From Eledone cirrhosa (Eukaryota), in NCBI GenBank assembly GCA_964016885.1, contig OZ024740.1:220906001-220970000 (forward strand): a DNA stretch of 64,000 bases. Direction: 5' to 3'. Positions 13,647-54,649 of this stretch are shown in pieces. Each line of letters starts with the position of its first letter. Positions within the stretch are counted from its first letter, which is position 1. A program made the position numbers and the translations under genes. The notes under the pieces are model-generated. The model was given only the letters and a program-made list of their open reading frames with translations, was not told the DNA's origin and searched no databases.

Positions 13647-13738
13647 TTAAGAATAAATTGTGACGACTTCCCGACCACTGCCACGCACCATCATTACACG
13701 ATCCAGACCTTCCGTGAGAACTTCTAAGAATTCCATAT
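13647..13738 (-). CDS. kcc: KCC last coding exon ([30 protein letters not shown])
   Basis: cag acceptor; TAA stop at 13647-13649. Confidence 0.96.
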
Positions 13739-16700
13739 CTGTAGAAAAATTTATTAAGGAACAACAACAGAAATTGTTTATTCATAAGAAAGAGTTAAAT
13801 AAAGATAGCTGCATTATAATACAATTTTGTTATATGGTTGTAAGACATAGATACTCACAAAGAAGCTTAAAAATGTTATGGAAGAGCCGCACCACCAACA
13901 ACATTTTATGATAGTTTGTATAAATAAAAAAAATAGCTGTGATTGGCATGTTGCTGTGTGAGATATATCGAAGAAATAGCCTCAAATTCAGAGCTATGGC
14001 AATCATTACACTGTTCCCTTAAAGGTACATAATTTTACCTGCCTCATTCTGCCTTACTCAACAATAGTTTTCAATTACTCTTGGGTCTCAAATAATAGTG
14101 GGGGTTGGAACATTTTTCAAGGTCGTCTCCCTTGTTTTTTTTTTAAACCAGAAGTAGTTGTTTAGTTTACATATTGTAACTGCAACCCATCTTATTTATT
14201 CTATAATATATGGGATTTCTTGTAATGTTCTTTTTTTGTCATGTATAATGTTTTTAATGTCTAAAGAAAATTAATTATCACAGGAATGCTACTACTTAAA
14301 ATAAAATTTCGCCAGATAGATTAGCAAAATTAGGAAATAAGAGCAGGAGGTTGGAAAAAATGTGAAAAAATAATAAAGGGATGACAATGATTATTTGAGA
14401 CCTGAGAGTATTATGATACAATTGTAAAAAAAAAAAAAAGTAATTCCTCTAACAGTATAGAGAATGAATGTAAAATAGGAAACCCAGTGAATTCATCTAC
14501 AAGGGTCAGATACCTGTGGTTCTTTAGCCTATCATGAGTGGCTCTTGTAAAATCTTGCATTAAAATAAAAAATAGGTCTTACGATCCAGACATTGAAGCA
14601 ATTTCACATTAGGAAAAAAATTGCTAAATTCATGTTTTCTTGTAAGCACTTTTTGTTTATGATAAATTATGTGGCTTTGATAGTTTCAATTATTAGCTTT
14701 TTAAAAAACCGATAACTATTTCAGAAAGCCAGTACAATGTGGTAGAAATACATAAAGGGCAAAAAATGACAAATTACCCAGTGCATTTTAACATATTTCA
14801 GGGCTATTATCCTCTTTTCAAATGTGAAACAAAATCTAACGATCAATGTGGTCTTCCATAACTGGTCTACATGTCTGAAATAAGCATATGTGAAATCATC
14901 TCAGTAGCTATCTTATTAAAACATACATAAAAGAGTCCAAGTTAAAAATTAGACCCTTTGTTTTGTTTTGAACCATTTTTTCTTCACATTTGAAAAGAGG
15001 GTATTGGCCCTGAAATATTATGTTGAAATATACTAGGTGAAACATTACTTTGTTTTATATGTCATCCTTTGCCCTTTATATATTTCTACCACATTGTACT
15101 AGCATTCTGAAACTTATCAGTCATTTATTACATATCCCACAATGCTTCAGATTAACTATACTAATTTATCATTATTATGGATTGGCAGTATCGGTAGAGG
15201 GTCGGACGCCATGCTTTGACGCATAGAGTTACGGTCCTTGCCATTCTGAGTTCAAATCCCGCCGAGGTTTACTTTGCCTTTCATCCTTACGGGGTTGATA
15301 AAATAAAGTACCAGTAATTGCTGGCCTTGTGCCAAAAGTAGAAACAATTATTATTTTTTTCTAGCTAAAAATTGTTCTTCAAATTGAAAACTTTCCCTAT
15401 CCCTGATCTTCATCAATATTAGGGAAGACTTGGTTTAAGGATTTTGGAAGGAATATTTTAAAAGATATATTTGTCTTTACTGACCAGTAATTTTTGTGGA
15501 AAGATAGTTGTTCATTTAAACTACTATGTTTTATTTAGACCTGCAAAAACACCTGTATAGGTAATTTTTTTTATACAAAAATATATTTTGTAGATGGATT
15601 GTATTAATTAATTGGAGACATATTCCCATGAAATCATAAAATGGAATCGAAAAAAATTATCTATTGTGTTCTAAACCCTTATTTTAATGGTCCCAGTTTC
15701 ATAGTTTTCCAATTAGAATGTATTTAAAATACAAATTAAATTTTCAAAAGCAAAAAAAGAGAATGAAATAACAGTTTTATGAAAAGGATACAGTTTTGTT
15801 CTCCAGATTCAGTTCTGGGAGGTGTTGGTAGGTTTAATATGACAAGTTGTGCTTCATGGGATTTCTCGACAATTACTTCATTCAATTTTACTGCTGTGTG
15901 CATTCTTCGTACGTTCTTTTTATCACTGGTTCAGGAAAAAGATTTTTTTAAAATCACATTAAATATGAAAACAAAGCTTGAAGAAAAATATTCTTTAATA
16001 TAAAAATGTACTTCACAACTTAAAGAGGACAGTGGTATATGAAATTAAATTATCAAAGATAGCAATTTAAATAATTCAATACTAACGGTTTCACTTGGAA
16101 AAGTTCTTTCCCTAATTCTTTTCCAAGTGATTTTGCTTCTGATGGAGAAAATGTGTATTGGCTTCTGTCAAGTTCTAGTGAATTGGCAGCATCATTAAAT
16201 TCGATAGTCTCTTCAACAACTGTTTCCAATGTCGCATCTTTTGACTCCAGAGCAGTAGGATTATGTGCACGATCAATTATGGACTGAGCCTGAAATACAA
16301 GAAACACAACAAATATCAGAAAGTTAAACAAACACAGTTGCCTACCAAACAATAAAGAACTATGTGTAATTATGAGCAGAGTAAATCTTGAATAATCTAG
16401 CTTTTATGTTACAAGTAGGCCATTGAGAAGTACTCTGTGGGCCCCGGGAACAGATAAAGAATTAGAACACAAAACACCTGACCTGGTGATTTTTTACAAG
16501 ATCTTTCTTGATTTTAAATGTAACTTGTTCCTTTGACATAAGAGTCCAAGAAAAGGAGGAGAAAATTACCTGTACCAGAATCGAAAAGGATTTGTCACTG
16601 TCATGAGATTAAGGTATCCCCTTCATCATAGGAACACTAGGTACTGTTTCAAAGAGTTTCCACAGCAAGTTAAAGAATATTAGCCCAGCCCCCTGTTTTG

Positions 16701-19700
16701 GAACAATTCAAAAGGCATGTCTACTGGGAACAGCAGGGACCCTCTGATACATCTTGAATATCTGAGGCTGCAGGTAGGAGCTTGATGTTCATCAGGGCAA
16801 ATTTACTGGTTAAACAACATCAATGACTAAGATATCAAATTCATAATAATTGACAAAGTGTCAAAAGTATGTATAACTGTTGACATGAACATGACCAACA
16901 AGGAGCAGAAGATTGAAAATTACCAGTATCTTGCTAGGAAGATAAAGAGATTGTGGAATGTTTCCACAAAAGTAATCCCCATTGTTAATAGTGTGTTAGG
17001 GACTATTTATTACCAACTGAATAGAAAGATCCCTGAAAAACATAGGAGTAACAACAACTGTACTATTGATCCAAAAGTCTGTCATATTGAGTACCGCAAA
17101 AATCATTAGAAAGGTCCAGGAGCTTTAAGGAAAAAAATTCCAATTTATTTGTACAAAGCAATGCAATAATAATGATTTGTAATTTTAGGCACAAGGCCAG
17201 CAATTTTGTGGTGGAGTGAGTTGATTAAATCAACCCCATTAATTGACTGGTACTTTATTTTATTGAATCCGGAAGGGTGAAAAGCGAAGTGACTTTGGTG
17301 GGATTTGAACTCAGAATTTAAGGAGCCAAAACAAATGCTGGAAAGCATTTTTTCTGATACTCTATAGATTCTGCTAATCTAAAACAACAACAACAATAAT
17401 ATGTCAGGACGATTCCCTTACAACTCCATAAAGAATTTCAGGCCTTCCTTCATCTCCTCTTCACATATTCTTACTAAATAAAAATAGATTCTAGTTGATT
17501 TAGCTTGTTTATGAAACTCATCAGAATGGCTTTCTTATAACTGGGGATTAATTCTCTTGATATACAAGATTAGATAACTTTTTCTTTTGCTAACTTGCCT
17601 CATTAGAACATGTGATGAGAAGAAGCAGATAAGATGTAGTGACAGAGCTAATTTGGGAGTAAGTTGACTATAATCTAAGAAAACTAACCGTTTCCTTCTG
17701 TAGTCTCATGTTACTAAGCAGTTCTGTTCTTTGTTCCATCATAAGGGTTCGTTCATAGGTATATGCAGATATATCAGAATTACTCTGGAAAGATAAAGAA
17801 TTATGAGTTTTTTCATAAATATCCAAATAAACACATTATTATTGAGAATATTCTTCAACTATGGAACAATATATAGCCACATAAACCATTAAAACAATAT
17901 TTAAAATGTAGATAAATGGTAAGGTAGTTGAAAAACATTAACGTTAAGAATATAGGCACATATGGAATTACTAGCAAAGTAACTGGATGATGGTGGGCAA
18001 TTTTCACCATTGAAAAATGGTTGTGTAGGTGTGTCACAGCAAAAAGCACCCAGTCCACACTATAAAGTGGTCATGTAGGTGTCACAGCAAAAAGCACCCA
18101 GTCCACACTGTAAAGTGGTGGTGTAGGTGTCACAGCAAAAAGCACCCAGTCCACACTGTAAAGTGTCGTGTAGGTGTCACAGCAAAAAGCACCCAGTCCA
18201 CACTGTAAAGTGGTGGTGTAGGTGTCACAGCAAAAAGCACCCAGTCCACACTATAAAGTGGTCATGTAGGTGTCACAGCAAAAAGCACCCAGTCCACACT
18301 GCAAAGTGGTCGTGTAGGTGTCACAGCAAAAAGCACCCAGTCCACACTGTAAAGTGGTGGTGTAGGTGTCACAGCAAAAAGCACCCAGTCCACACTGTAA
18401 AGTGGTCGTGTAGGTGTCACAGCAAAAAGCACCCAGTCCATACTGTAAAGTGGTGGTGTAGGTGTCACAGCAAAAAGCACCTAGTCCACACTGTAAAATG
18501 GTCATGTAGGCGTCATGAGAAACAGCACCCAGTACTCACTGTAAATGAGGTTGGTGCTAGGAAGGGCATCCAGCTGTAGAAACCAGGCCAAATCGGTGGA
18601 GCTGTATGTTGAAATGGTATCAGTGGCTTTTTGTGTACTTTAAAATGAGTGTCTTCATGTAAACATCAGGTGACCTCTGTGAGGACAACACTCTGCCTCA
18701 TAGCAAGAACAATGCCACCAGCTGACGGCATAGGGGGATAGAATAATAAGGCCACATTGAAGGAATACATGAAACAATAAATAAAAGCCAGACTGCTTAA
18801 ATTGTCACAGTATCAGTGATTGATAGTATTACTAGTTTTTATTTCTTTTATTCTTTTTGGAATTAAGAATCTCCATGGGCCCAAAAACCTCCTTGGGATG
18901 CAGATTTTGAAAATCAGATCAGTTTTTTTCTAGGATGCGCCATTTCAGAGCCTTTAAACGACATACATTTTCAAAAATATAGATATACAATATATTTGTG
19001 TATAACAAATATAAATTTAGTTTTGTTGAGAGCATTTTAAGCTGTGATCATATCATAGCCATTTCAGCATCTATTTAAGAATGCTGACGAAAGTGGTTGT
19101 CGTGTGATCACAGTAATACTACATGTGTTTGTTATACATAAACTATTGTATATTGGTTCGCATAATCCTTTATGCTGAATCAAACCTTGTCAGCGTAATC
19201 ACTAGTTAAAATGAAGTCACATTTCCTTACCATCTCGACTATTTTCACTTCAGCTTCAATACGTAGGTTATACATGTATTGATTAAGATCCTTTTCCATT
19301 TGAATACTGTTATCTTCCAGTTCTGAGAAGTGCATTATTAAGAAAAAACAACAGGTACACAATACCCAAATGTTGAAAGAGAGGTGTATCAACTCCAGTA
19401 AATTACTGGTATATATATATATATATATACTTGAATATAAGCTGCAGCACAATTTTCCATGCATTTACAATGTGCCATGTAGTTTAGATTCTGTATGTCC
19501 AGCGAAACATAGGTTATGAATGTAGAGCAGCATAGATGGTAGAAGGTTGAAAAAAACTGAATTGGGAATAGTTTAGTGGATGAGATGAGCAGAATATTAC
19601 TCAGAGACAAACAGAGGATGATGAGAACAAAACCAGTGTTGAATGCTGTGAAGAGAATTAGAATGAGATGGCAGGGCCATGTGTTGAGGAAGGATGAAAT

Positions 19701-22700
19701 GTGGCTGGGTGAGAGGAATGAGGGAGATGAATGTGGAAAGAAACAGAGGGAGGGAAGACCAATTAAAACATAATTAAACATGATGGAGGAGGAAATGAAA
19801 GCCATGGGATTTGGTGAGAGAGATGCAGATGACAGGGCAAAATGGAGAAGCTTGTCATTGGGCATTGAATGGCTAACTTTTACTTTAGCAAGAAAACTAG
19901 CTTTAAAATGTTTGTTGCTGTGGTTCTAGGTACAGTATTTTTATGGAAAAAATGTGACTTATACACAAATATATATGGTGTGTTACTAACTCTGAAATCT
20001 CCAATTTCTCCATGAATTTCTTAAATATCCCCATTTCAATCAATATCTATTACAATGTGATAACCTCCCAATCCTACCTTGATTTTCTTTTGCCCATTCC
20101 ACTTATTTCAAATCTGCGAGACCATGTCCCATCAAATGAAATATTTTTTTCATTTCTTATGGATGAGCCCAGGTTATCAACAGTACCACTACTTTTCTGC
20201 CTAGCACCCATGAACCTGTCAAATGCATTTCATCAAAAGGACATCGTCCTACTTTTTTACACTTTCTAGAGTGATTAAAAGCTGCTTTGGTCAGACAAAG
20301 TTATAGGTTTGGCTCAGTCACCTGTAAATGTGGAGAATCAAACCAGACTATAGGGCATTGCATTGTCTGATCCCTGTTACTCAATCCATGCAGCTCAAAA
20401 GACCTTGCAGACTTCAATGAAAATATAATGAGCTGTGTGGTGAGGTGGAAAGCTGTTACATGACCACTGTGCTAGCCTTGATGAAATGACAAGAGAAAGA
20501 AAACACCTTCAAATTCAACAAAAACCCTTTGTGATCTCCTGGTGAGAAGTTCCTTTGTCTTCAGACATGCCCAACTTTGAACTGGCTGTAATACATCTTC
20601 AACACCACACTTCTACATGGCTTACAGTTCACTGTCCATGTTTTTGACCATTTTCATTGCACTTACGCTAATCTTGTATACCGTATTGCAATGCTTTATA
20701 TATAAGTGAGACCCATTGTTGATTGGATAACTGCTTCTGGGAACACGTACTTAATGTCCATAGCAACATACCAAAACTATGGATAGCCACTTCAACTTCC
20801 CTAGTCACCCAGCCAGAACCTCTCAGTCTTTGGAAGACACCAACTAATTTTCCAATTGGGAACCTTTGTTCCCAATGGTACAATCATTTGCCTTAATTTC
20901 CTCTAATTCTGTCACCCACCTCATTTACTTTTTAACCCTTTAGCATTTAAACTAGCCATATCTGTCCAGAATTCTCTCACCTCTTTCTGCTCAAACCAGC
21001 AGCTCATACTGATATTAAGGTATTGTCCGCAAAATAAATATCAACAGATATGAAGATGGGGAAGGCAACCGGTCCATCGGGTATAGCTGCCGAGATACTG
21101 AAGGCATCTGGGTCTGTAGGTCACACTATAACCACACGTATTGTTAACCAGGTAATACTAGAAGGTGTCATACCAAAAGATTGGTGCAGTAGCATCATTG
21201 TCAACTGCTACAAAGGTAAAGGCGATGCACTAGATAGAGGAAACTATAGAGGTATAAAGTTGATGGACCAGGTCATGAAAGTAACAGAAAGAGTTATAGC
21301 ACAGTTGATTAGGGACCGGGTGAAAATAGACGAGATGCAATTTGGGTTTGTACCAGATGCACCACTGATGCCCTCTTCCTTGTGAGGCAATTACAGGAAA
21401 AGTACCTAGCTAAAAGTAAGCCACTCTACTTGGCATTTGTCGACCTTGAGAAAGCCTTTGACAGAGTTCCACGTGCTGTAATCTGGTGGGCTCTTAGAAA
21501 ACTAGGAGTAGATGAATGGCTTGTGAAAGCGGTACAAGCATGTATAGGGGAGCAGTCAGCAAAGTTAGTATTAGCAATGAGTATAGCGAGGAATTTAGCA
21601 TACAGGTTGGGGTCCACCAGGGCTCTGTCCTTAGCCCCCTCCTGTTCATCATAGTCCTGCAGGCAATAACGGAGGAGTTTAAGACCGGATGCCCATGGGA
21701 ACTCCTGTATGCTGATGACCTCGCACTCATAGCTGAATCTATGGTAGAACTTGGAAGCAGGGACTAGAAAGAAAGGGTCTCAAAGTCAACATGACAAAGA
21801 CTAAGGTCCTTGTAAGTAGACGAGAAAACAGAACCCAGATCCCCTCAGGGAAATGGCCTTGCTCAGTATGTAGGAAAGGTGTAGGTAGGAACTCCATTCT
21901 CTGCCCCAAATGCAAAAAATGGGTACACAAGAGATGGAGCGGGATCTCAGGAAGCTTAATTAAGAATGTAGGCTTCACATGCAGCAGCTGTGCTGAAACA
22001 GCAAGCAGCAAACAGCCACAGGAAACAAGTACCACCAATCTCTGGGAGGGCTCTGTAGAAACAGTAGACAACTTCTGCTACCTAGGTGACCGAATTAGCA
22101 GCGGAGGTGGGTGTTCAGAAAGTACAATAACTAGGGTAAGAACGGGATGGAAGAAGTTTAGGGAACTACTACCACTGCTAGCTGCAAAAGGCTTCTCCCT
22201 CAGAATGAAAGGCAGACTGTATGATGCGTGTATCCGAACAGCAATGTTGCATGGTAGTGAGACCTGGGCGCTGAAAGTGGAAGATTTACGTAGATTAGAG
22301 AGAAACGAAGCCTGCATGCTCCGATGGATGTGTAACAGTAATATACGTGAACGACAAAGCATAAATGAATTGAGAGAGAGACTGAGCATAAGAGGAATCA
22401 AATGCTGTGTGCAGGAGAGGCGGTTGCGCTGGTATGGACATGTGATGCGTATGAAGGATGACAGCTGCATAAAAAGGTGCAGAGCACTAGAAGTTGATGG
22501 AAACCGCGGAGTGGGGAGACCCAAGATGACCTGGGATGAGGTGATAAAAGCCGACCTTACCCAATTACACCTCTCAAAGGCAATGACACACGACCATGAC
22601 TTCTGGCGTCATGCAGTAATACAGAGTACCCGACCTCCCATGGGTACAAGCTGAAGCATATAGACAATATGGAAAGTGAATACATTAAAACTGGACAACT

Positions 22701-25700
22701 CTTTTTTTAAATTTCTGATTTATATTAGTTTCCTGAAAATTAAAAAAAAAAAAGAATTTGGTGTAAGTATTGAAGAAGTGCCAAGAAATTCCAGTGGAAG
22801 GAAGCTGCAGTAGAAGAAGGCGAAGGAGCAGAGGTGGTGAGAGCTGATCTCAAATCACTGAAACTCAGTGGAGATGACGAAGGATCCTGACATGTGGAGA
22901 GATGCTGTACTGAAAAGGACTTGTTCAACTCATACAAGCGTGAAAAAAACGGATGTAAAAACGATGAAGATGATGGTGATGGTTATGATTCAGCATTTCA
23001 AAACATAAATTCATATCTGTACAAATATAGTCCAGGATTGAAGTGAAGTTGTGGAAACTGTTTGTCGCAAACATATAACCCATAACTCCTGAAGGTGTGA
23101 TAGAGGTGCCATATTGACATACAGTATTTCTAGGGCATTTTTAAACCTGGCAGAGCCCATCTCCTCTCTGGGACTCAATACAGTAGATTTCTTCTAGGGA
23201 AGGTTAGAGAGTGAGAGAAAGGAAGTGAAAAAGAGATATAGTGGAAGAATCGACCTCAGTACTAGACTGGTACTTTTTTTTTACCTTAAATGGAGGAAAG
23301 GCGAAGTTGAACTCGGTGGGATTTGAACTTCCGAGAGCAGAGAGCCAGAACGAATATCATAAAGCATTCTATCCAATGTTGTAATGACTGCCAATTCGCT
23401 GCCTCTGTGCAAACATACACATTTATAATTGTAAACATGCCTTATGTATTTCTCTGTAAATTGAAAAACATGAACAGTTCGGCCTAGGTTTCAGCTCTTC
23501 TTGGAATCATCTTCAAAAGTTATATACATCTCTCACATTTCACAGAGAAACACACAACTTTGTAACTCCATCAAATGTAACTGTAACAGTGAACTGGATA
23601 TGCCATGTTACATGTGTGTGTTTACATTCACATTTTCTGCAGCTTCATTTAAATCCTATATTGCTTCTGTACAGATAAGAATTTATAGTATACAACGATT
23701 GGCTAAAAAGTTCATAGGCTGACTATGTAGCAGTGACGCTAGAGCTGTGAAATCTTGCATGCATTAATTTCAACTCTTCTTATTAATATCTGCATTGTTT
23801 CTTTCCAGGGATTGTGTTGAAAAATGAACCTCATTTGGTCATTCTATGAGAGTATCTTGGTAAATCTATGAACTTTTCAGCCCTTAAGCTGCTTAGTGCG
23901 CAGTTTAATGCATATACAATGGAACCTCAGTTCACAAACACCTCTAATCATAAACAAATTGGTTCACAAACAGTTTTTCTGAACATAAAACCTCTTGGTT
24001 GACGAATGGTGTCTTGAGTAACGAACACGCAAACTGGCAACAATGGTTGGTGACAAGCTTGGAGCATAGGTGGGAGAGTGTCATTTGCTGTAGTTAGATA
24101 CAATGGTGATATCTATCTGTCTTTCACACACAGTCTCTCACTTCGTATGGGAAAAACAGTTTCGGTTTACAAACATTTCGGTTACGTTCAGTCTTCAAAA
24201 ACGAATTAAGAACATGAACTGAGGTTCCACTGTATTTCAAAATATGAATTTTAAAAAAATAATCTCACACTGCCCTGGAAGTATTGAAAACCATTGCAAG
24301 CATTGAAAATAAGACATAAAATGGTGGTAATGATTTCATTGAAAGGATACGGGCTACTGTGAAGATCCGTAGTTTGCAGTTTCTCCAGACTTTGTGTTGT
24401 CTAAGCAGGAAGGGCAACAACATCAAAAGACCTCCTTCATATAATCAAAGTTAAGAGAAATATTTTGAAGAAAAGTCAAATATAGAAACAAAGAGATAAT
24501 ATAATGTGTAAATACAGTTGGATTTTCAAAATGTTCATATAATGCTCTGGACATATATTGATAATTTGATTAATTTAAAGATAAAATTGACCACATTTTA
24601 TTGAAAATTATGACCATAATTATTTTAACTTATATATTTAACCCTTTAGTATTTAAACTGGTCATATCCGGCCAGAATTCTTTGACCTCTTTCTGTTCAA
24701 ACCGGCCATAACTGGTCACTCATGCTGATGTTAAGGTATTGTTCCCAAAATAAATAATATCAAAATCTCATAGATTCAATATTATGTGAGATAAAGTCTT
24801 TATCATGAAAATATAATAGTAAATATAGAGTAATGTAAATGCTAAAGGGTTAACTTATTTTTAACAAAGGATTATTTTCTATTTTCATAGAAGTTTGATA
24901 ACTAGATTTAAACACTCACAAAATAAATATTAATATAACCTAAGGAGACTTGGGATGAGGTGATAAAAGTTGAGCTGGCACAATTGCACCTCTCAAGGGC
25001 AATGACACAGGATCGAGAACTCTGGCATTATGCAGTAATGTGAAGGCGCATGGCTTAGTGGTTAAAGCATTGGGCTTGCAATTGAGAGGTTGTGAGTTTG
25101 ATTCTTGGACCGGGTGATGCATTGCGTCCTTGAGCAAGACACTTTATTTCATGTTGCTCCAGTTTACACAGCTGTAGAAATGAGTTGCGACGTCACTGGT
25201 GCCATGTTATATTGGCCATTGTCTTTGTCCTGGACAACATCGGTGGCGTAGAGAGGGGAGACTGGTATGCATGGTCGACTACTGGTCTTTCACAAAACAA
25301 ACCTTGCCCAGGCTTGTGCCTTAGAGGGAAACTTTCTAGGTGCAAAACCATGGTTATTCGTGACTGAGTGAGGCAATAGAGATATGCAGTAATACAGAAA
25401 ATCCACCTTCCCATGTGCACAGGTTGAAGCATACATCTTGTATACACTACGTTTCCCCTTCCCCATCCCACTATTGTTTAAATGCCCAAAACACAATGGC
25501 ATCCATTTGACTCCATTACAAGCTGAGGGGCAATGGAAAATTTACTTCCCTGTCTATTTTAAAAGAAGAAAGTGTTAAATTGGATATTAATATTTCTGAA
25601 TATACATATTTAAACTGTTTCAAAGTATTTTTGTAAAATCTGATCTATTATTTAGACATATATTTGTAGTTAAATACTGTGTGTATTGTGGCTTTTAGGG

Positions 25701-28700
25701 ATAAATGTACTGTATCGATGCAATGGCATAAGACTCGGCTGTAAAACATTATCTCAAAACATCCTATCCAACCCATGCCAGCATGAAAAAGGGGACATAT
25801 AAATGATGATGACAATGGGGATGATGACAATGGTGATGATGATAATGATGATGAATTGATTTTGATTTCAAGGATATGAACAATCCACCAGACGTCAATG
25901 GTTCCGGTTAATTTTTGAGTGTTATCAGGGAACTGGTTAATGCCCTTTACAGCCATTAAGGCCAGCTGGGCACTAGCAACATTCCTGATGGTGTCTAAAA
26001 AGGAAAGGAAAATTTATACTTAGTTAAATTAAATCCAAGGACAAATTAAAAAAAAAGTGGTAGTTGTTAATCGAATAATTTTTTGTAGTCATCTTATATA
26101 TATATATATATATATATAAAAGCTGACCTTTACAAAACACCAGTCACATATACACATGCAAATGTATGTACAGCTGTATATGTATGAATGTGTGTGTATC
26201 CACAGAAAATATTTCAAAGAATTCAGACACACAAACGTGCATATTCACATACACACACACACATAAGCACACTTACGTGTACACAGATGAACACAAAAAA
26301 AACAAAAGAATTCAGACACACACTTGTATATACACACACACAAACCATACAAAAAAGTTGCAAATACGTGAATATACACATACATACACTCATACATAAA
26401 AATATACACACACACACACTCATACAAAAACATACACATGTACACCAAAACACTACAAACAATCTCCACATAAACACACACACAAAACACAGGACTCACA
26501 GACACATACATGTATACATGCACACACAAACAATACAAAAGACTCAGACATCCACATATATACACACACACTCATAAAAAAAACATACATCCATGTGCAC
26601 AGAAAAAAAAAATTCAGACACATGCACTTCCATCAACAATACACAATCCACACATAGAAGTGTAGAAGATCACGCCACCTAGCTTTGACTTTGGAGGCAG
26701 TCGATTAACTGACCTTAGTTCTGACGTCAGTAGCTGAATACACTCGCTTTCCAACTTTGTGTGTTGATGCGAGCAGACGCATTTCACTGTGGCGAAACAG
26801 CGATATCACACCATGCGGTCACGGGATAATTGAACACTGCCACTTAATGATAATTACGAATTACCAATCAAGGAGCAACTGATGTGATAACCCGTTTTGT
26901 TTATTGCTCTGATTAAAATGCTCATGTACATATAATCTCGAGGTATGTTCTTTTTGCTTAATTGTTTACCTACACCTAACAACAAATAGAAGAGATGTTC
27001 TAGCAGCCAAGCTAGGGAAACGAACTCCCCTCTAAATCATAAAACAATGCAGCCTTCTAAAATGGTGACCATCTCTCCTAAAGTGGTTGACTCCAAACAT
27101 CGAACACTATAAAATGGCAACCCTCCTGATAAAACATTTCGTTGAACATTTATAAGCGAAACACTTATATCTTCTATTATGCTATTCTCTGGGCAGTGAA
27201 TATACAACAAAAAACAAAAAAAAAAACATTTAATTTTTCTGCCTTGAATTATTGTGACTTGTCGATTCTGGATTTTGCATTTCTTTCTTCATGGATGTTG
27301 AAGGAAATTTGTGTAGTTTTCCCGTTGTTCGGAACATCTAATGAAATTTCTGCATTCTTTTTACGTGAATATCACTTACTTTTATACGTCCAAGTTGATA
27401 TAGATTGACAATGAGTGGTCCTAATTTACCTGCGTTCTCAGGTGATCCCAAACTCTGGTTTGCACAACTCAACGCATATTTCGCTGCGAATGGAGTAAAA
27501 ACAGAGCAGAAGCTCAACGTTTTGATAAGCGGCATTCCTTCTTCACTCGCTACAACGGTGAAGGATTTGATAACGGACCCGTCGGCCGGTATTTCGTATG
27601 ATTCATTACGGGAAGAAATAGTAAGAAGAAACAGTCGTTCTGCTGAAAGCAGATTTCGTTCATTGTTGGATGACGTGTGTTTAGGTGACAGAACACCGTC
27701 TGAATTTTTGTGACACATCAGGGACCTCAGCGACTCGACCGACGAAGATAGCCCATTCATAAAGAAACTATTTTCTCTTGCCTGCCAAACAACGTCCAAA
27801 TTATCTTGGCAAACATTGTGGGTACCAGCTCTTTGGAGCAGATTGCTGCCTCCACTGATCGAATTGTGGAATTTTCTAGAAAGGCTACCGCCCCGGACTC
27901 GTGTGTTGCTTCTTCTGCACATTCGAACCAGCCCGTCTTAACACGCGAGGATGCCATGTTAAAAGCTACTGACGCTTTGATGCAGCAAGTCGCTCGGTTA
28001 TGCAGGGAGAATAGGCCGTATTCCCGGCAGCCTAGGAGTCGTTCGCGTTCTTTCACGACTCCACGTCAGCATACTACTTCGCCCGCCAGTAATCCATTAT
28101 TTTGCTGGTATCATGCCAGCTTCGCGGATAAGGCAAAACATTGCCGGCCTCCATGTAAATATTCAGCTTCGGGAAATGTAAATCAGAGTCACTAAAGGCG
28201 GCAAGTGAACTCTGCGAGACACAACAGAACCGCCATTTCTTCATAGAGGACCTCCTGTCTGGAAGAGCCTTCCTCATAGATGCAGGAGCTTCGTGCAGTA
28301 TTTGACCTGTTAATTGTATGACAGTAACTCCTCCCGAGTCGTCGATTGAATTGCAAGCTGTCAACCAGTCACCAATCCAAACTTTTGGACAGATCTCGCT
28401 TCCTCTTCAGTTTCGAAATCTTCGTCGGGATTTCAAATGGGTTTTCAATGTTGCTGACCTGCCATACCCGATTTTGGGTGCGGACTTCCTGCACCATTTT
28501 TCTTTGACGGTAGACGTCCGTCACCAACACCTAGTCGACGATATTACTGGTTTTTCTCTTTGTGGCAGGACGGCAGAAGTTTCTACAGTTAGTCCGACAT
28601 TCTTCATCGCTAACTCCGGAAACCCATATCATGGATTGTTGAAATCGTTCCCGCAACTGACTCATGGAAATTTTAGAGTCACTGATCCGAACCACGCCAT

Positions 28701-31700
28701 GGAGCATTTCATTACTACTACTGGCGCTCCAAACTGAAAGCAGCACGGTCCGAGTTCGATCATATGCTGCAGCTCGGAGTTATTCGTCCTTCCACGAACC
28801 CGTGGGCATCTCCATTACATATGGTGCCAAAATCTTCTGGGGATTATAGACGATTGAACTCGATGACCGTACCGGATCGGTATTCTATCCCTCATCTGCA
28901 GGATTTTGCATCATCGTTGCAAGGTTGTAACATCTTTTTGAAACTCAATTTGATACGAGCCTACAACCAAATTCTTGTCAACAGAGACGACATCCCGAAA
29001 ACGGCTATATCTACGCCATTTGGATCTTTTGAATTTCTCACCATGCCTTTCGGGTTAAGGAATGCTGCTAGCACCTTCCAGCGATTTATGGATGAGGTCA
29101 CTCGCGACCTCGATTTTGTATACACATATATTGACGATCTTCTTGTTGCTAGCTCTTCTTCAGCGCAACATTTGCGCCATCTGGACCTTCTATTTTGTCG
29201 TTTGAAGGATTACAATGTTCGGATTAATCCATCAAAATGTGTTTTTGGTTCCGAATCTCTGAATTTTTGGGGCCATGTCATTGACACTGATGGTATTCGA
29301 CCTATTCCTGAGAGAGTTAAAGCTATAGAGGATTTGCCTCCACCAACCTCACTCCGTCAGTTGCGCCAATTCTTGGGGCTGATTAATTTTTATAGGCGGT
29401 TTGTGCCTAATTGTGCTAAGCTACACTTCTCTTTGACGGAAATTTTGAAAAATTGTCGAAAGAAAAATAAAGACATTTCTTTGAATGAAACTCAGCTCGA
29501 GGATTTTGAGAATGCGAAAATTGCTCTAACCAATGCATCTTTGCTGGCTCACCCAGTGTCCAATGCTAAACTTTCATTTTGTGTTGATGCGTTGGATACT
29601 GCCGTGGGCGCAGTTTTACAACAAAGTAGGAATGATCAACAGCAACTGTTTGAATTTTTCTCCAGGAAGCTGAAACCTGCTGAAACCCGCTACAGCACCT
29701 TTGGACGGGAGTTGTTAGCTATATACTTATCGGTGAAGCATTTTTCGCACATGCTTGATGGAAGAACGTTCACCATTTCACGGACCACAAGCCGTTGACA
29801 TTCGCCTTGCAAGCAAAGGCCGACAAATACTCGCCCAGAGAAACTAGACATGTCAACCTCATCTCTCAATTTACTAATGATATTCAACATATTCCGGGTT
29901 CTATGAATACAGCGGCCGACGGCGTCTGGTTTGCCGATTGCTTCGATCTCGTCATCCAATGACATAGATTTGAATCGCTTGGCAGCCGATCAGCCTACCC
30001 TTGAATCATTGGATGTTACATCATCTGAATTTGTGAATTTCAGGATGAAATACCTACCATTATCGACCGCAGATGGACGGATCCTCTGCGGCGTCTCTTT
30101 GGATGCGCCACGCCCTTTTGTTCCGTTGAACCCTCGTCGAACTGTGTTTCTTGTTTTACATGGCATTTCACATCCAGGATCTTCTGTCACAGTAAAACTC
30201 ATAACGGCTAGATTCTTCTGGCCAAATATGAGACGTGATATTACTGTTTGGTGCTGTTCCTGTGTTGCTTGCCAGAAATCAAAAGTTCACAGGCATGTTA
30301 AGACTCCTCTAGTTACTTTTAGTAACCCGGACGCTCGGTTTCGCCACATTCATGTGGACATCGTGGGACCTTGGCCAATCAGCGGTGGTTATAATTAGAT
30401 AATGACTGTTATCGATCGTTTTTCGCGATGGCCTGAAGCCATCCCCTTGAAAGATATCACTGCTGAGACAACAGCGCGTGCCCTTGTGTCTGGATGGATC
30501 GCTCGATATGGAGTACCAACGTCAATTACCACGGACCGTGGAAGGCAGTTTGAATAGAATCTCTTCCATGAATTAACGAAAATCATCGGCGCTAAACGCA
30601 TCCGAACGACTGCATATCATCCTGCCTCTAATGGAATGGTGGAGCACTTCCACCGACAACTAAAAGCCGCCCTACGGACTTCTCCTGACTCTACGTGTTG
30701 GAGCGAGTACCTCCCTATTGTGTTGCTGGGGATTTGGTCAACAATAAAGGAGGACCTTGGGTTCTCCCCAGCTGAATTATTATATGGTGCTCCTCTAGCG
30801 TTACCTGGGCAAATGCTTGCCCCTGTCGATCTTGCTGCACAGGATCCGCTTTCCTACGTATCCCGTCTGCGTTCCTATTTTCAGGACCTGCCGCCGATGG
30901 ATACGAGGAAGCAAACTGTAAAATCTGCAGTCCCGAGGGATATTGCCTCGTGGACCCACGTGTTCGTGAGAAACGATGCTGTGAGACCACCTCTCACACA
31001 ACCGTACTCTGGACCCTACCGTGTATTAGCTCATTCTGAGAAACATTTCACTGTAGACATTAAGGGTTCCAGAGAGACGGTTTCTATTGATCGACTCAAA
31101 TGAGCACATTTGGACACAGACGCTATCACACCTGAGCCACAAACGCCCCCATCTTTTTCTTTCGCACACACACCTGCTTCTTCGTTGTCCCCCCTCACCA
31201 AGATATAAGACTACGACCCGTTCCGGTCGGAGGGTTCATTGGCCCAAAAAACTGTGTAGCACTGTATATTTTAAAGCTGCTATTGTGCGGCGCTTTAATC
31301 CTATATTTCCTATTTGAACTTTTAAAAATTGTATTTACATTTTATTATAATTTTTTTTCTTTCTCGTTCTTGCATGCTTGTTTCATATGTTCTTTTGAAA
31401 TTTGTTGTGCCCTTCATGCTTGGTTGGGCTGATTTGCTCCTTGGTTTGGGGTTTTTGCTAGTTGCTCATCGTTTTTCTACATACATGGTCCGATGAACCG
31501 ATTTTTATTTCCTTTTCTAAAAATCTGGTGGGGGGGGGGGCATGTAGAAGATCACGCCACCTAGCTTTGACTTTGGAGGCAGTCGATTAACTGCCCTTAG
31601 TTCTGACGTCAGTAGCTGAATACACCCTCTTTCCAACTTTGTGTGTTGATGCGAGCAGACGCATTTCACTGTGGCGAAACAGTGATATCACACCATGCGG

Positions 31701-34700
31701 TCACAGGATAATTGAACACTGCCACTTAATGATAATTATGAATTACCAATCAAGGAGCAACCGATATGATAACCTGTTTTGTTTATTGCTCTGATTAAAA
31801 TGCTCATGTACATATAATCTCGAGGTATGTTCTTTTTGCTTAATTGTTTACCTACACCTAACAACAAATAGAAGAGATGTTCTAGCAGCCAAGCTAGGGA
31901 AATGAACTCCCCGCTAAATCGTAAAACAACGCAGCCTTCTAAAATGGTGACCATCTCTGCTAAAGAAGCAATAACGCACATCAATGAAATGCACTCAATC
32001 TGCACACCCATAACTATTTAATTTATTTATCTTTAATTTGTTTTCTTTTAAGGCTCAAGATAATTTCTTTGAACGCAAAACTTTTTTGTCAACCCCTAAT
32101 ATACTACAAATTCTTATAAGGACCCCAGATGATAACCACTGTTCTAAACCAGGTGTGGGCAACCTTTTTCGAACAGTGGGCCACATAGGATGTGGTTCAT
32201 CATAAGGTGGACCACACTACCAAAAAAATCCAAGGCACTTTTGAAATTAGGTGTGCTATTCGGAAATCTAAATGGGGTGCATGCGGCCCACAGCTTGCTC
32301 ATGACTTTTCTAAACACTAACTTAATAATAAGAACATTAGTTATTTTACAAAATCCCTTGAAATTTTTGATGATTTTCAGAATTAACTGAAGATTATGAG
32401 CAGCATCTTTCATTAGAAATATCGTAATGAAAGGGTTAAGACAACTTGAAAGAATATATTTATCAAAATATCTAAAACCGATTGACCAATATCATATCCT
32501 ATGAATCCTTATTTGCAGACACATATCTTAAATATAGTTCATTACTAGTACCTTATGGAACACATTTGGGAAATCTGGGAGAAAATGGATCCCCTCACAG
32601 ACATGCCTGTGTGTGTGTGTGTGTCTTCTGCCAGTATATATCAGAAGAAGATGTAAACATCAGAGAAAAAAAAAGTGCTTTTAAAACAAAGTCCCTTGCA
32701 ATATTTGTTCTGCACTGAATTACAGATACATTCTCTCATAGTTAGAAATGCATTGAACCAGTGATTAGCCATTTGAAAACCTGTTAACGATGATGCTGTT
32801 GTTCACCAAATGTGATATAGAATAAATAAATAAATGAAGATTAACAACAATAAAAGAGAGTTGCTCCAGGTAGAACTATTACTTTTCTGAATTGAGAGAT
32901 CACAGCTGTGATATTATGGGCATGTGGTTAGAATATCTTAGGTAAGAATTGTTGGACAGATTTTATGGGCAAAACCAATTGGCAGGACACCCAGGGGTAG
33001 ACACTGAGCAAGATGGGTGGATAAAATCCAAGAGCTTGGCTGCTTGTGGCAGGACCTGCTAGAGGGTGTGCTTGAGAACTTATCCTCCATGACCCTCTCA
33101 AGAAGAAGAAAGAAGAAAACAACAACAACAACAATAAACATAAAACAAGCAAGCAAATAACTGGGTTACCTATAAAGACCCTGTAGCTCTTCTGCTCAGG
33201 ACTATGTCTCCAACCATAAGGCCATCCGATCATAATTGTGTTATGTTTCAAACCTCCAAGGCCGGCTGTCTGGGTTCTGTAAGATTAAAAACTCTTATGT
33301 TATTTCAATAGCAGCAGGAATCATCTGATTTCTTTCCTTTCTTTTTTTAAAAAAATTCATAATATACATAAGAAGGGCATCAAGCCATAGGAAACCTGCC
33401 AACCAAAGGGTTGAGAGGACTCTTGATCTGTGTCAAAGATATGACGTTCTCCATAAGAATGTTGACCTAGACAATACATGCAGCCAGTATACTCTATAAA
33501 GAGGTTAGTGTTAAGGAGGGCATCCAGCCATAGGAAATCTGTCAAACAAAGGGTTGGAAGGATTCTTCAGTTACATGAAATACATGACCACCTTCATAAT
33601 ATTGGTAATAAGAAGGGCATCCAGCTGTAGGAAACTTGCTAAACAAAAGGTTGGGAGGATTTTTCAGCTATGTCAAAGACATGATGACCTCCTTAGTGTT
33701 AGTGTCACAATAAAATGCACTCGGTAGAGAATAGGAACATATGCAAATGAGATACGGGCCCCTCACCTATCTGAGAACAATGTAGAGTGTAACAACATAT
33801 GTAAGAGAGATGCATGCGCATGATCCATCTGAGAGATCAGTAACTTAACTTGAGTACTGACTCGGTCGGTGATGACGTGTCCAACTCTTGCTAGCAGGAA
33901 GAATAGATCTTAAATAATGATGATGATGGCAATAACTTTGGCGAAGTGACTGACTGATCATCTCATCTTTTTAGGGGTGTATCATCATCATCATCATCAC
34001 CATTTAACATCCATTTTTCCACGCTAGCATGGGTTAGATGTGTTTTCCTGTTGTGAGACAAGTCAGATCTTGCTCATACAGAACCGTTTCTGGCTTGGTT
34101 TCTATGGCTGGATGTCTTCCTAACGCCAGCCACATTTACAGTGTGGAGTGGGTGCTTTTTATCATGGCAGCAAAACGATCACTTTACAGTGTGGGCTGGT
34201 TGTTTTTTGTCATGACACCTAACACAACTACTTTACAGTGTTTTTGGATGTCAGTAGACCTGCTTCAGTAGTGACTCGGTCTGTGAAAACCCTTCCAACT
34301 CTTGCCAGCAAGGAAACTGGATGTTAAATGATGATGATGAGAGGATGAGATTTGAAGGAGAGTTAGCTGCTATTTCTGGATGAATGAATACTTATTTGTC
34401 TAATCAGTCAATTATTAGTTAGCTATTATTTCTAGATATCTTCACCTAGTTTTTTTTTTTAAGTTCCTGATAATTTTAGGTCAATGAATAGAGGAAGACA
34501 ATAGAGTGGTTTATTTCCGTGAAGTGGTTAGTACCTATATTTTGGTGGTGGTGTTGTAGGAGACTAAAGTGCCAAGTTCCTGTTGAAGTCTATTTTGGTG
34601 ATCTCCTATTGTATCAAGAAACGATGGAAATTAAAATATAGGTAATATATTGCCTTATGAATGAATTTGGTAGATGGAAACTGTAGAAAGCCTGTTGTAT

Positions 34701-35564
34701 ACAGATGTGCATAAATATACATGTATGTATATAAGTGTAAAAAAAAAAATATATATATATATATATATCTTAGTTTCAGAAAAGCAGAAATTGTTTGCTT
34801 AAACTTTTAATCTGTACTATTAATATATATATATATATTCATTATTATTAAGGCTAAAAAGTGAGTCTTGTTACTCAGGATTTTTGCCTGTTTATCTCAG
34901 CCGTTAACCACATACAGATATATATATATATATATGTATGCATAAATTCTCTTCCCTTTGGTATTTGTTGTTGTTATCTATTGAAATTAGCATACATATG
35001 GTCAAAATTTTGTTCATGGAGTTTTCCTCTAATATCGTAATTGAGTCTACTATGATGCCAAGAATTTATTTCTCGCATCAAGTGTCTAGAGACTACCTCA
35101 GATGTTTTTGACTTGTGCTGATTAAGTGCAAATATGGCTCCAATGAACTACTACTCTATCATCATCATCATTATCATCATTTAACATCTATCTTCCATGC
35201 TGGAATGGGTTAGTCTATATATATATAAATATATAGTAGTTAGAACATCAGGCTGACAGTCCTGAGGTTGTGAGTTTGATTCTTGGACCGGGTTTTACGT
35301 TTTGTTCTTGAGCAAGACACTTTATTTCACATTGATCCAGTTCACTCAGCTGTAGAAATGAGTTGAGATGTCACTGGTGCCAAGCTGTATTGGCCATTGC
35401 CTTTCCCTTGGACAACATCGGTGGTGTGGAGAGGAGAGACTGGTATTCATGGGTGGTTGCTGGTCTTCTACAAACAACCTTGCCCGGACTTGTGCCTCGG
35501 AGAGGAACTTTCTAGGTGCAAATCCCATGGCCATTCATGACCGAAGGGGGTCTTTACGCTTTAC

Positions 35565-35617
<53 letters not shown>

Positions 35618-36252
35618 GTAAAAGGTTAACAGAAATAAAACAAATGGTATAGTATATGGAAGGAATACATTAGTTTAAAGCTTAATGGGACACTCGTCTA
35701 AAACACGCTAGTGTGGAAATATGGACATTAAACGATGATAATAATGATATAGTATAAATAGAGAATTAGGAAAAACCAGGTGAGAAAAGATGAAATTTGA
35801 AAAAAGATTTATAACATTATATTGTAATATAATTGCCTAGTTTTTCCTAATATTCTATTTATTCTAAATTATTCTGTGAAATTCTATTTGGAACCATGTA
35901 CCATATTTGATGATTCAACATCTGGATACTTATAACTCCACCAACTACGTTGAGCACAACTGACTGATAGGCTGTTTATTTCACCTTTCTTGCATATTCA
36001 CTCCACATAAACACGAATTAACCAACATAAGAAGAAACCTCTATATCTATCTATATGTATATACCATGCTAGTGTGGAAGATGGACATTAAACGATGATG
36101 ATGATGATGATAGAAGAAGTCAACACAGTAATACAATACAATGATGATATATTAGGAAAATGAAGGAAAGAAGAGAGGATGCTTGGCAGAGAGAAGAAGA
36201 AATAGCAAGACAGACAGGAATAAGAAAAAAAATAGAAAATAGTAAAAAGGCA

Positions 36253-36287
<35 letters not shown>

Positions 36288-39200
36288 AATAGGGTCTATC
36301 AGTCTGAATATGGCAAATGACACAAATCTTCAGTCAATTGAGACTATCCTTGCAATTTCAAGAATGAAACTCCTTTTAGGGGTGTTAAAGTAAAGAGAAG
36401 CAAGGAAGAGAACTCTTGTAGCTTGAGCTGAACCATGGGAACAGACCATGTGTTTGTGTGAATGTGTGTGCATATGTATGTATGGATACCAGATGTCATG
36501 GATGCCATATCAATACTACTATAAGCCTGAGGTATTAGAAAATGTTAACAGCATATATCATACTTAAAATAAGGTATGGTTTGGCATGAGGGAGGATATT
36601 CTACCATAGAAATACTTACCAGAACAGAGATCTCATTCAACCCATGCAAGCATGGACAAACAGACATAAAAGCAATGATGAAGATGATGATGATGATGAG
36701 CCAATTTAAAGCCTATAAGAGTACTTACAGGTGACATAACCCCTCAATCACACTTTTTGCCACTAATACATCTGCAAAACCTTTGATATTTTCTGAATCC
36801 ATTAAATGATCAAGTGCCTATAAAGAAATAAAAAATAGAAAATTTAACCAAACAAAAAAATAACAAAGCATGAGACATCAGATATCTTATCCCTTACATC
36901 CCAAAAGAAGAAAATAAAAATAGCTCATATCTTAAAAGGGTTAACAGCCGGAAAAAAAAATCCTTTTGTTAACATATTTCTTATGAAAGACACTGCTTAT
37001 GATTTTCAAATATTTTTAATAAAGAATTTGGAGAAATTTAGAAGAGTTTTTATTATCAAGTTGATATTTGAAGCATTACTTAACAAAATGTTACATAAAA
37101 TCAGAATGAAAGGTATGACTATTTTAAAAGGAGCAGTTTTCTATAATAAAACCAGCAGTGGTTTCAGGCAGATTGGTATCAAAAGGGTTAAGTAGATTGC
37201 ATACAAAGGGTTAACAAAAGAAAAGATTATAAAATCCATTCGTTAACATATTTCTAATGAAAAAAACTGCCTATGATTTTCAATTATTTTTGTAAATAAT
37301 CAAGAATTTGGAAGAGCTTAGTAATATAAGTAACTTTACCATTACTAATCAGGTGTTTTGAACATAACTAACTTTCTCATTATCTATTTGTATTTGGAGC
37401 ATAACTTAATAAAGGCTCTTACATAAAAGTATGATGGAAGATTTGTATATAAATATAAACAGTAAAATAAACGATAGGTAGTATCTAGTAGTTTGGTATT
37501 AAAGGATTAAAAATATCTATAATACCATTCTGGTTGCTTTGACATGGGTACAAATGTTACACTTTTAACAAGTTTAACTATGGAACATAAAGATATATAA
37601 TTTAAAAGTTTTTACATAATGAAAGAAGTATTATGTTTTCAGCAATATTATATAAGAACATTTATTAAGTTATGTTCCAAACAATATCTTAATTATTAGA
37701 ATATTAATTATATATTATAACTACATCCCTCAACATTTTTAATTTTTTCACAATTATTTGAAAACCAAAGGCAGTGTCTTTCATTGGAAATATATGGTAG
37801 TAAAACATTTAACAGAAAAGTTTTAAAATACACTTACTTGTTTAGCAGCTTGAGATTTAGCAAACGTTCTCCTAAAATCTCCTTCTAGTACACTGGATAC
37901 TAGAATAAGTCCTTTACCTAAAAGTTAATTAAAAATATAGAATATACAATAAATTTAACAATTTCTTCACAAAATATTATTATATGTTTATGGTCTTAAA
38001 TTTTTAGAATAAGATTTTCTTATGGTAACATTAAATTGGAAGTTGTATTATTCTTAAGCAGTGGATTTTAAGGAAATGTTAATATAGTTGACCATTTAAA
38101 AAAAATATTTAGTCAAGAGAAGAGCAATGTACGTGGCCCTTTTCAGAGCCTCTGAAACTAGTTGGAAGGAGGGGAGATGGTAACCACAAAACAGAGTCCT
38201 GGTCTGAATTACTTGCAGCAGAACATGAACTCTGGTGAAGGCACCCAAGGGCCAAGTGGTGACAAGACTACCACTCAAATAGGTTGCAGTAGGATTTGAA
38301 CTCAGAACAAAAACAGCAAGAAAAGGCAATGCTTTAACAATGCTGTAAATTCACTACCCTAGACTGGTACTTTATTTTATTGACCCTGAAAGGATGAAAT
38401 GCAAAATTCCCCTCAGCATGATTTAAACTGAGAGCATAGAAGATGGAAACAAATGCTGCAAGGTATTTTGTACCATGCTCTAATGACTGCCAGTTAAGGA
38501 AACGCTGGTCTAAACAATTCTATTTTTCTATATGAACCAATGTAGAATCTTCTATATTTATTTAGTGTTTCTTCCATCATTACTTCAACATGTATAGAAG
38601 TTCATGTTTCACTGATGAGGGCATAATAATACCTGGTACTTGAGTTTAATGAAGCCACCATACAATCCTGCAGTCTAATGACTGCAACAGGCAAAATAAT
38701 AAACGAGAGTTAAAGAATATATAAATATATATATGCATACCAGCTTTTAATTGAGTTGCGAGTGTTGCCAATTTTGGGTACATTGGTTTCAAATTTTCAT
38801 CTGGTTTCATAAGAACAAGCAATTGGGGTCTAAAGAAAGAAAGAAAGAAAGAAGGAATATCAGAAAATTATATGCACATATGAAATAAAATGATATTGTT
38901 TAACTTGTCATAATGTCAATATTTGTTAAAGTATAGAAATAATCAAGTCATCTCCAGTTAATTACTGGTAGATATTTGATCAACTTGGACAGATTTAGAT
39001 TTGTTACTATATTTATTTCCCTTAAAGCACACACTGCTATCTTAAGAAAGTTGATAAGACTACATTTCTTCTTTTCCTCTTACCTCCTGAGGGAGTCGTA
39101 GGGGCTTCCAGAGACGGATAAAGAGAATGAGAGAATGGAAGTTAGAAAGAAATATAGAGGAAGAATCGATCCCAGTACTTTTTTTATTGACCTCAAATGG

Positions 39201-42200: not shown

Positions 42201-43129
42201 TCCAGCTGAGTGAACTGAAACAAGGTGAAATGAAATGCCTTACTCAAGGACAAAATTCATCACTCAGTCTGGGAATTGAATCCATCCCCGTATGATCAAG
42301 AACCCAACAGCTTAACAACTGGTTAACGTTTCTACAGTCAAAAAAAGAACTCATCCTCCTATCCTCAGTTGTCCAGTGGGATGCCTCAAATTCAGGAAAA
42401 GCAAGACTGATGAAAAGCAAAAATGACTGATGAAAAGCATACATGTTTGATGAAAAGCAAAAACATTATGTAATATTCATTTCAAGGAAAAGAATAGCAT
42501 ACCTCCAATTTTTGGTATGGGGTGGTCCTTCTTGTAATCTAAGTAATGCATATCTTGCCGCAGACATAGCAAGTCCACGTATACCATCTCCCCATTCTTT
42601 TTCAGCACTGTTAAATTACACATTCAATAAAGATTTAAACATTAATTTTCTAAGTATCAATTAACTATTCAGAGTATGTTTTTATTGTTGCAATTTTTAT
42701 AAATGAATATATACATACACATATATCAGTAAATGCGGTTGGTATTAAGAAGCACATCCTACTGTAAAAATCCTGCCCAAATTTACAGTTATGTTTGAGC
42801 AAGATACAGCGCAGCCAATCTGGCCAGACTTGTCTCATGATGTGAACGACCCATCTAACCCATGCAAGCATGGAAAATGGATGTTAAATGGTCATGATGA
42901 TGATGATACACACACACACACACACAGATAAATATAATGAATAAAATAACCAGGGTTTAATCACATTATTTAATAGATTTACAAACATTTCTTTTAAATA
43001 CAGAATTATTCTCTGCCTATATGCTTGCCTTATATGTTTGTATTATCAAGTCTACCCTTTATCTATCTATATATATTTGTCTTGTTTTTGTTTGTTGTCT
43101 TCTCTTTGTTAATTTTCCTATATTCTTTT

Positions 43130-43160
<31 letters not shown>

Positions 43161-47613: not shown

Positions 47614-47656
<43 letters not shown>

Positions 47657-48350: not shown

Positions 48351-48385
<35 letters not shown>

Positions 48386-49582: not shown

Positions 49583-49638
<56 letters not shown>

Positions 49639-50098
49639 GATAGGAATTCACTTCGCCAAATTTCATTGCTTGCTGTCTAACCCACGATATTCATGTAAAC
49701 GTAATGTACAGACTTCATTTCTCTCCCTCCACAAATCTTAATTCTAGCGTATTTTCAAAACAATCCATATTTCGTATCAAGTCCAAATAGCCAATCTATC
49801 GCTAAAACAAACTACATTTTCTGTTTCTATTAATTGTTAAATACGCAAGTTTTTGGGCGTATTTAACAGAACAAATTTTGTATTTTTGTTAATCGCTTGT
49901 TAAATGCAAGGACCCCATTCAATCATTACCTTCTTGCTAGCTATTTTCAAACCTTAATTCCTAACGTATTTTCAAACCTCAATCCCTAATTCTAGCGTAT
50001 CTTCAAAACAAAAAAACAAAATCCTTTCCTTCTTCCTTCTTCGAAGGCACGGGGCGGTCAAACGCCTAACACTCACAGCCATCATGTGCCCCCCCCCC

Positions 50099-50148
<50 letters not shown>

Positions 50149-54617: not shown

Positions 54618-54649
<32 letters not shown>

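Follow-up and report, generated by a model that had tools for sequence, protein, structure and literature searches.

Three U12-type introns in an octopod KCC gene, likely retained from an ancestral gene, and a predicted AT-AT intron among them

The stretch analyzed here, referred to as the window, was 64,000 nucleotides (nt) of Eledone cirrhosa DNA (contig OZ024740.1, positions 220,906,001 to 220,970,000). Its minus strand carried the 3' part of a K-Cl cotransporter (KCC) gene of the SLC12A4-7 family, in which three introns were U12-type by motif. A 16-exon model, with exons running from 62449 to 13647, gave a single open frame of 601 amino acids (aa) plus a stop codon. The 5' exons of octopus KCC, including the exon after a further U12 intron position named TM8, were beyond window position 64000. 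The 601-aa product was identical at 589 to 591 of 601 residues to the RefSeq KCCs of Octopus sinensis and Octopus bimaculoides. The stored protein P0002 (589/601 residues identical to the window product, 98%) scored 1079 bits against TIGR00930, a K-Cl cotransporter model with a cutoff of 953, and it matched PDB structures of KCC1-4 at 1205 to 1288 bits and those of NKCC/NCC at 377 bits at most. By these sequence comparisons, the window gene is an octopod KCC that groups with KCC rather than with NKCC/NCC. K+-coupled Cl- transport would be expected from the family, as it was in an earlier annotation of this DNA (here, the sequence-only reading), which called the product a chloride extruder. The gene and the region around the three introns were organized as follows.

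13647..62449, minus strand: KCC gene, 3' part, 16 coding exons and 15 introns, 601 aa plus stop
25878..25994, minus strand: exon 10, ending in IDVWWIV plus the first base of a His codon
24441..25877, minus strand: intron 10, 1437 nt, phase 1, U12 A-type by motif, donor ATATCCTTG, predicted AT-AT termini
24450..24458, minus strand: branch-site-like TCTCTTAAC of intron 10, 9 nt before the AT end
24351..24440, minus strand: exon 11, 90 nt, phase 1-1, U12-type introns on both sides
19323..24350, minus strand: intron 11, 5028 nt, phase 1, U12 GT-AG by motif, donor GTATCCTTT, branch-like TTTCTTAAT at 19345-19337
19231..19322, minus strand: exon 12, from the open-frame exon model
15792..15925, minus strand: exon 15, from the open-frame exon model
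13739..15791, minus strand: intron 15 (last coding intron), 2053 nt, phase 1, U12 GT-AG by motif, donor GTATCCTTT
13761-13753, minus strand: branch-like TTCCTTAAT of intron 15, 14 nt before the 3' end
13647..13738, minus strand: last coding exon, through the stop codon, from the open-frame exon model

The positions of introns 10, 11, and 15 were named VH, VAQ, and last, respectively. The minus-strand donors at these positions, ATATCCTTG at 25877 and GTATCCTTT at 24350 and 15791, fitted the pattern RTATCCTT. All three introns were in phase 1 and interrupted the codons for His in WWIVH, Gln in FTVAQ, and Tyr in NYMEF; the remaining 12 of the 15 introns were GT-AG introns with ordinary donors. 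Because RTATCCTT was found only 7 times in 128,000 positions (5.5e-5), its presence at three of 15 junctions (about 1e-10 by chance) was far beyond chance expectation. When donors were scored with a U12-versus-U2 matrix, which was home-made rather than taken from intronIC and had a training set of 17 U12 donors, all of one orthologous site, plus 42 U2 donors, each of the three introns scored +14.9 and the other 12 scored from -0.4 to -17.3. Branch-like motifs TCTCTTAAC, TTTCTTAAT, and TTCCTTAAT preceded the 3' ends of introns 10, 11, and 15 by 9, 14, and 14 nt, respectively, with one or two mismatches to a TTCCTTRAY-like consensus. Since matches with two mismatches or fewer were also found in 4 of the 12 U2 introns of the gene, the branch motif was weak by itself; intron 1, which has an ordinary donor, had a branch score of 7.4, compared to 7.0 to 8.7 for the three U12-type introns. 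Thus, the donors carried the U12 case.

The motifs supported the assignment of three of the 15 KCC introns in the window to the U12 type. The sequence-only reading had placed U12 donors at the same three positions, branch sites 9 to 14 nt before the 3' ends, ordinary GT donors in the other 12 introns, and a 90-nt exon between two of the U12 introns, and all of these observations were reproduced. The donor scoring that it had proposed, done here with the home-made matrix, set the three introns apart from the U2 set. One further match, GTATCCTT at 2772 (an isolated GTATCCTTT, 2765-2772, minus strand), was about 11 kb past the stop codon without an evident exon, and it was discarded as a probable chance occurrence.

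In the case of intron 10, an exon start at 24440 placed the 3' end at AT, not AC or AG, a feature that the earlier reading had overlooked. Of the 25 exon starts that were tried (24426-24450), only 24440 yielded WWIVHEGG. The same peptide occurred in 17 stored proteins, among them the RefSeq models from two species of Octopus and the intronless Logan proteins from cephalopods. When the junction was shifted by two bases, the termini were still AT-AT. A GT-AG reading of this intron was rejected by inspection, as the nearby GT donors were out of phase with the nearby AGs. Counted from the A at 24451, the candidate ends were AT at 10 nt (the predicted end), AT at 12 nt, AA at 15 nt, and AG at 16 nt; the AT at 12 nt and the AA at 15 nt would shift the frame, and the AG at 16 nt would preserve it, with HEG becoming R. 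The branch-to-end spacing of intron 10 was 9 nt, and all 27 distinct orthologous acceptors had longer spacings (10 to 20 nt). In the Argonauta model, the junction reads VPCVYEGG, and its nine extra nt match the spacing between the branch-site AC and the exon in the window. By implication, the Argonauta intron at the VH site probably also ends in T. We predict from these comparisons that intron 10 is spliced with AT at both ends. As a separate observation, the conserved HDGG motif (window 24433-24438) has the form HEGG in cephalopods, in a chiton, and in some annelid-like loci (P0011; L005, L007, L021, L024, L038, L060, and L090), apparently independently of intron subtype.

Metagenome contigs were scanned for the end of exon 10, which yielded at least 115 loci, many of them near-duplicates or paralogs from one annelid-like group; the counts that follow are among the 115 loci listed. 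At the VH site, 56 loci had a U12 donor at exactly the window position, all of them GT; 58 had no intron there, and some of these were contigs that resembled intronless transcripts; the remaining one (L094) was attributed to chance and set aside. The VH acceptor was covered in 28 of the U12 loci, and all 28 introns were GT-AG. At the VAQ site, 24 of these 28 loci had a U2 intron, two (L027 and L079) had a U12 intron, and two had no intron. Among loci without a VH intron, VAQ was U12 in five (three of them jellyfish-like) and U2 in one, bringing the totals at this site to 7 U12 and 25 U2. A VAQ footprint was also visible as read-through at the end of the jellyfish Rhopilema model P0033. The last site was U12 in L007, L043, L066, and the fish-like L072, and TM8, the fourth shared position, was U12 in L027, L037, and L043. 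Thus, L027 and L043 each had three U12 introns. The 44 loci that had an intron at neither VH nor VAQ were not counted as cases of intron loss because some of them were intronless transcript-like contigs.

Loci L027 and L079 contained the same 90-nt exon between VH and VAQ U12 introns that was found in octopus, and they grouped with two different annelid KCC lineages. Placement of L027 as echinoderm-like or as a basal animal was rejected, as it was 75% identical to Capitella and fell with a second annelid KCC paralog (FastTree support, 0.999). This divergent paralog lineage appears to be present in annelids (L027; P0098, P0099, P0100, and P0101), and several further KCC paralogs were apparent in the annelid-like loci. 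The orthologous alignments indicated that all three window U12 positions are old and common to other animals. The suggestion in the sequence-only reading that the octopus introns represent an ancestral state partly lost elsewhere agreed with the alignment of intron position and type that it had called for: U12 introns were conserved at the VH, VAQ, and last sites in metagenome loci, and elsewhere they were in part lost or converted to U2.

In vertebrates, the supplement of PMC6717393, as far as it was available, gives two minor introns for each of SLC12A4, 5, 6, and 7 in human and mouse, which bears out the statement in the sequence-only reading that these are minor-intron genes. The same supplement lists a minor donor of human SLC12A6 and SLC12A7 (score 100) whose 12-mer is identical to that of octopus intron 15. 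Read-through footprints were found in vertebrate gene models, 3 at the last site and 11 at TM8; from these footprints and the donor contexts, we infer that the vertebrate minor introns map to the last site and TM8. No human SLC12A6 variant names that would fix the exon borders were found. The VH intron was absent from all three fish-like loci (L041, L072, and L102), which had a GT intron after QHK instead. With the vertebrate minor introns at the last site and TM8 and none at VH, one of the window's three U12 introns would be common to vertebrates. The sequence-only reading had allowed that the same three introns might be documented in most orthologs; in the accessible material this would be so for the last intron in vertebrates, and the VH intron was absent from the fish-like loci. 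A related gene, SLC12A9, is listed in the available supplement of PMC6717393 with one minor intron that has the same donor context (ACT before the junction and GTATCC after it).

The VH donor was A-type in the octopus DNA and GT in 56 of 56 U12 loci. Read-through into VHIL, which implies an A-type donor, was seen in gastropod, bivalve, and octopus models (Lymnaea, Pinctada, Sinanodonta, and Octopus vulgaris; P0014, P0018, P0020, and P0068) and in two oyster-like open reading frames (ORFs; P0211 and P0225). The model of the annelid Lamellibrachia, P0099, reads VRIL, compared to VHIL in molluscs. An A-type donor in molluscs and a GT donor in the 56 loci would mean that the subtype of this intron has switched. 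Because the G-type was found in both annelid lineages and in L062 and L106, a G-to-A switch in molluscs was the simpler reading, and we consider it probable. In the accessible part of PMC2831892, both subtypes occur within 36 U12DB clusters.

The parsimonious explanation, which we infer from these distributions, is an ancestral KCC gene with four phase-1 U12 introns (VH, VAQ, last, and TM8), different subsets of which were kept, converted, or lost. Vertebrates would have kept TM8 and last; most annelid-like loci would have kept VH and converted VAQ to U2; jellyfish would have kept VAQ; and octopus would have kept VH, VAQ, and last. The donor and the branch site are recognized jointly by U11/U12 in the minor spliceosome, where distance largely determines which 3' end is used and AT-AN termini are tolerated. 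U11/U12 would read the donor and branch site of intron 10 in this way, and its 3' end would be set mainly by the distance from the branch point, making the AT 10 nt downstream usable. An A-type 5' end should resist conversion to U2, locking intron 10 in place, because, of 79 converted clusters with a single subtype, 74 were GT-AG in the available part of PMC2831892. The need of KCC for the minor spliceosome would be constitutive, and no dedicated regulatory switch was indicated. Overall, it is likely that the three U12-type introns of octopus KCC were retained from such a four-intron ancestor and that the first of them became AT-AT after a likely molluscan G-to-A switch.

Several points weighed against this explanation. 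No single locus had all four U12 introns, and the VH intron was missing from both jellyfish models and from the jellyfish-like loci. The direction of the G-to-A switch depended on L062 and L106, which were short (93 and 135 aa) and poorly placed; none of the 115 loci listed had an AT-type donor at the DNA level, and the molluscan A-type outside the window was read from mis-predicted proteins. With so many near-duplicates and paralogs from one annelid-like group and at least 115 loci overall, locus counts were not species counts. The predicted AT end of intron 10 rests on homology, and an in-frame AG 6 nt downstream of it was a rival acceptor.

That AG, at 24436-24435, was 16 nt from the branch A, inside the spacing range of orthologous acceptors, and AT-AG was the commonest noncanonical U12 pair in Table 2 of PMC1557818, as far as that paper was available. 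An AT-AG intron 10 would give the product WWIV-R-GLL, with two residues fewer. We regard this as extremely improbable, as WWIVHEGG was present in the RefSeq models of O. sinensis and O. bimaculoides and in the intronless Logan cephalopod proteins, 226 of 235 stored proteins retained H[DEN]GG (the nine exceptions were read-through or skipping artifacts), the AG form was found in none of the 235 stored proteins with the motif, and the orthologous acceptors were located at the position equivalent to 24440. A terminal T produced by an assembly error, or by a private variant in what is otherwise an ordinary AT-AC intron, was also very unlikely. Although the window came from one single assembly, a terminal T is also implied by the Argonauta model, and the gene model of O. 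vulgaris and the older one of O. bimaculoides likewise failed at intron 10. The acceptor was covered by X5 and X8, DNA contigs from other organisms, and barely by X6. Among the differences listed for X5 and X8, none was at 24441-24442 and neighboring ones were, which is suggestive only since the comparison covered just 10 of 25 differences in X8 record 24 and 8 of 33 in X5 record 9.

The third alternative was that the AT-AT intron is purposely inefficient and tunes the level of KCC, and thus neuronal chloride, by tissue or state. If intron 10 or 11 were retained, translation would meet an early stop, and retention of the last intron would replace the C-terminal end. The frame would survive the skipping of exon 11, alone or together with exon 10, at the cost of 30 or 69 conserved residues, respectively. 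These consequences indicate that KCC depends on minor splicing, but not that it is regulated by minor splicing. According to the accessible part of PMC8280824, minor introns of the A-type undergo splicing with lower efficiency, with higher basal retention, and require CENATAC in human cells, so a bottleneck has some basis. The early stop, the out-of-frame rival ends (AT and AA, 2 and 5 nt downstream), the 9-nt spacing below that of all 27 orthologous acceptors, and the T-ending intron seemingly shared with Argonauta were consistent with such a role. In contrast, the junction was normal in 17 of 17 HEGG proteins, with no AG form among the 235 motif proteins. In addition, noncanonical ends switch between human and mouse in 14 of 24 cases (PMC1557818, in part), which fits drift, and it is argued in PMC10639083 (in part) that minor introns evolve to a large extent by neutral processes. 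We therefore considered purposeful inefficiency unlikely. A fuller version, in which a molluscan change from GT-AG to A-type, counter to the direction usually proposed, and an octopod drift to AT-AT, with out-of-frame rival ends and a second U12 intron alongside, create a putative CENATAC-sensitive bottleneck for KCC and for inhibitory chloride gradients in cephalopod neurons, was judged slightly less probable still.

The sequence-only reading had also proposed that the output of this gene is strongly dependent on the minor spliceosome. Vertebrate KCCs need the minor spliceosome twice (PMC6717393 supplement, in part), L027 and L043 also have three U12 introns, and extra U12 introns may cause no additional delay according to the available part of PMC1557818. 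Thus, having three was not special to octopus. Differential retention of ancestral U12 introns was the best reading of the data, and special regulation was not indicated.

Other features of the locus were noted as well. Three O. sinensis isoforms (P0063, P0066, and P0069) have five extra residues (QQRIC) at the intron 14 junction (15926-16086), and no coding stretch matching QQRIC was found within window 15700-17688. Intron 9 contained, on the strand opposite to KCC, an element at 26661-31842 that resembles a long terminal repeat (LTR) retrotransposon. Its direct repeats, 300 nt each, at 26661-26960 and 31543-31842, were 97% identical, and it included a 344-aa ORF (28764-29798). The insertion appears to be recent, and the element ends about 670 nt upstream of exon 10. 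Introns 11 and 1 contained related fragments (about 21050-22560, 51400-53700, and 57300-60000) that resemble long interspersed nuclear elements (reverse-transcriptase type). A tandem array with a unit of about 34 nt was located at 18040-18500 in intron 12.

KCC offers a compact natural series, within one gene, of U12 introns that were kept, converted to U2, lost, or switched between G- and A-type, and the series is suited to tests of minor intron evolution and of 3' end choice in A-type introns. There is also a practical cost, as intron 10 breaks automated KCC models by read-through, skipping, or a shifted acceptor; broken models were those of O. vulgaris, older O. bimaculoides, Argonauta, Lymnaea, Pinctada, and Sinanodonta. 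A role in regulating chloride homeostasis in cephalopods, if true, would matter more. A literature search found no paper on these KCC U12 introns in invertebrates. Term searches found no mention of SLC12 in the accessible text of PMC7367187, PMC11347168, and PMC10639083, the PMC2831892 supplement had no SLC12 row, and nothing on U12 introns was found in the available parts of PMC13361015 and PMC5491111. O. sinensis is among the species analyzed in PMC10639083 (available in part), and its KCC U12 introns may already be catalogued in the supplement or database of that paper. AT-AT termini, subtype switches, and G-type-biased conversion are documented in the accessible parts of PMC1557818, PMC10639083, and PMC2831892, and minor introns with AT-AT ends form a class that is rare but known. 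Only two points are fresh, the AT-AT termini predicted for intron 10 and the difference in subtype between molluscs and annelids; the rest is a new example of known phenomena.

Among known systems, vertebrate KCC1-4 resembled the octopus gene in having a minor last intron with an identical donor 12-mer, with which the fish-like L072 and the mis-predicted vertebrate models agreed, but the second vertebrate minor intron would be at TM8, beyond the window. The fish-like loci differed in having no VH intron, no VAQ intron (L072), and a U2 intron after QHK. Noncanonical AT-AN (A-type) U12 introns are known from human ERCC5 and IK and mouse Gpaa1 and Slc9a8 (AT-AT introns). Octopus intron 10 differs from these in that its ortholog is G-type in annelid-like loci, it has tandem rival dinucleotides, and its AT-AT termini are predicted only. 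In the model of Burge et al., as cited in the accessible part of PMC2831892, conversion runs from AT-AC to GT-AG to U2. The VAQ site, with U12 and U2 forms at one position, is like this model, whereas at VH a change from GT to AT in molluscs would probably be the simpler reading. According to the available part of PMC1557818, 45 to 46 mammalian genes have two U12 introns and 2 to 3 have three, and the clustering of such introns in ion-transport genes is known. Genes with three U12 introns, like octopus KCC, include mammalian SLC9A/NHE sodium-hydrogen exchangers, which belong to a different family.

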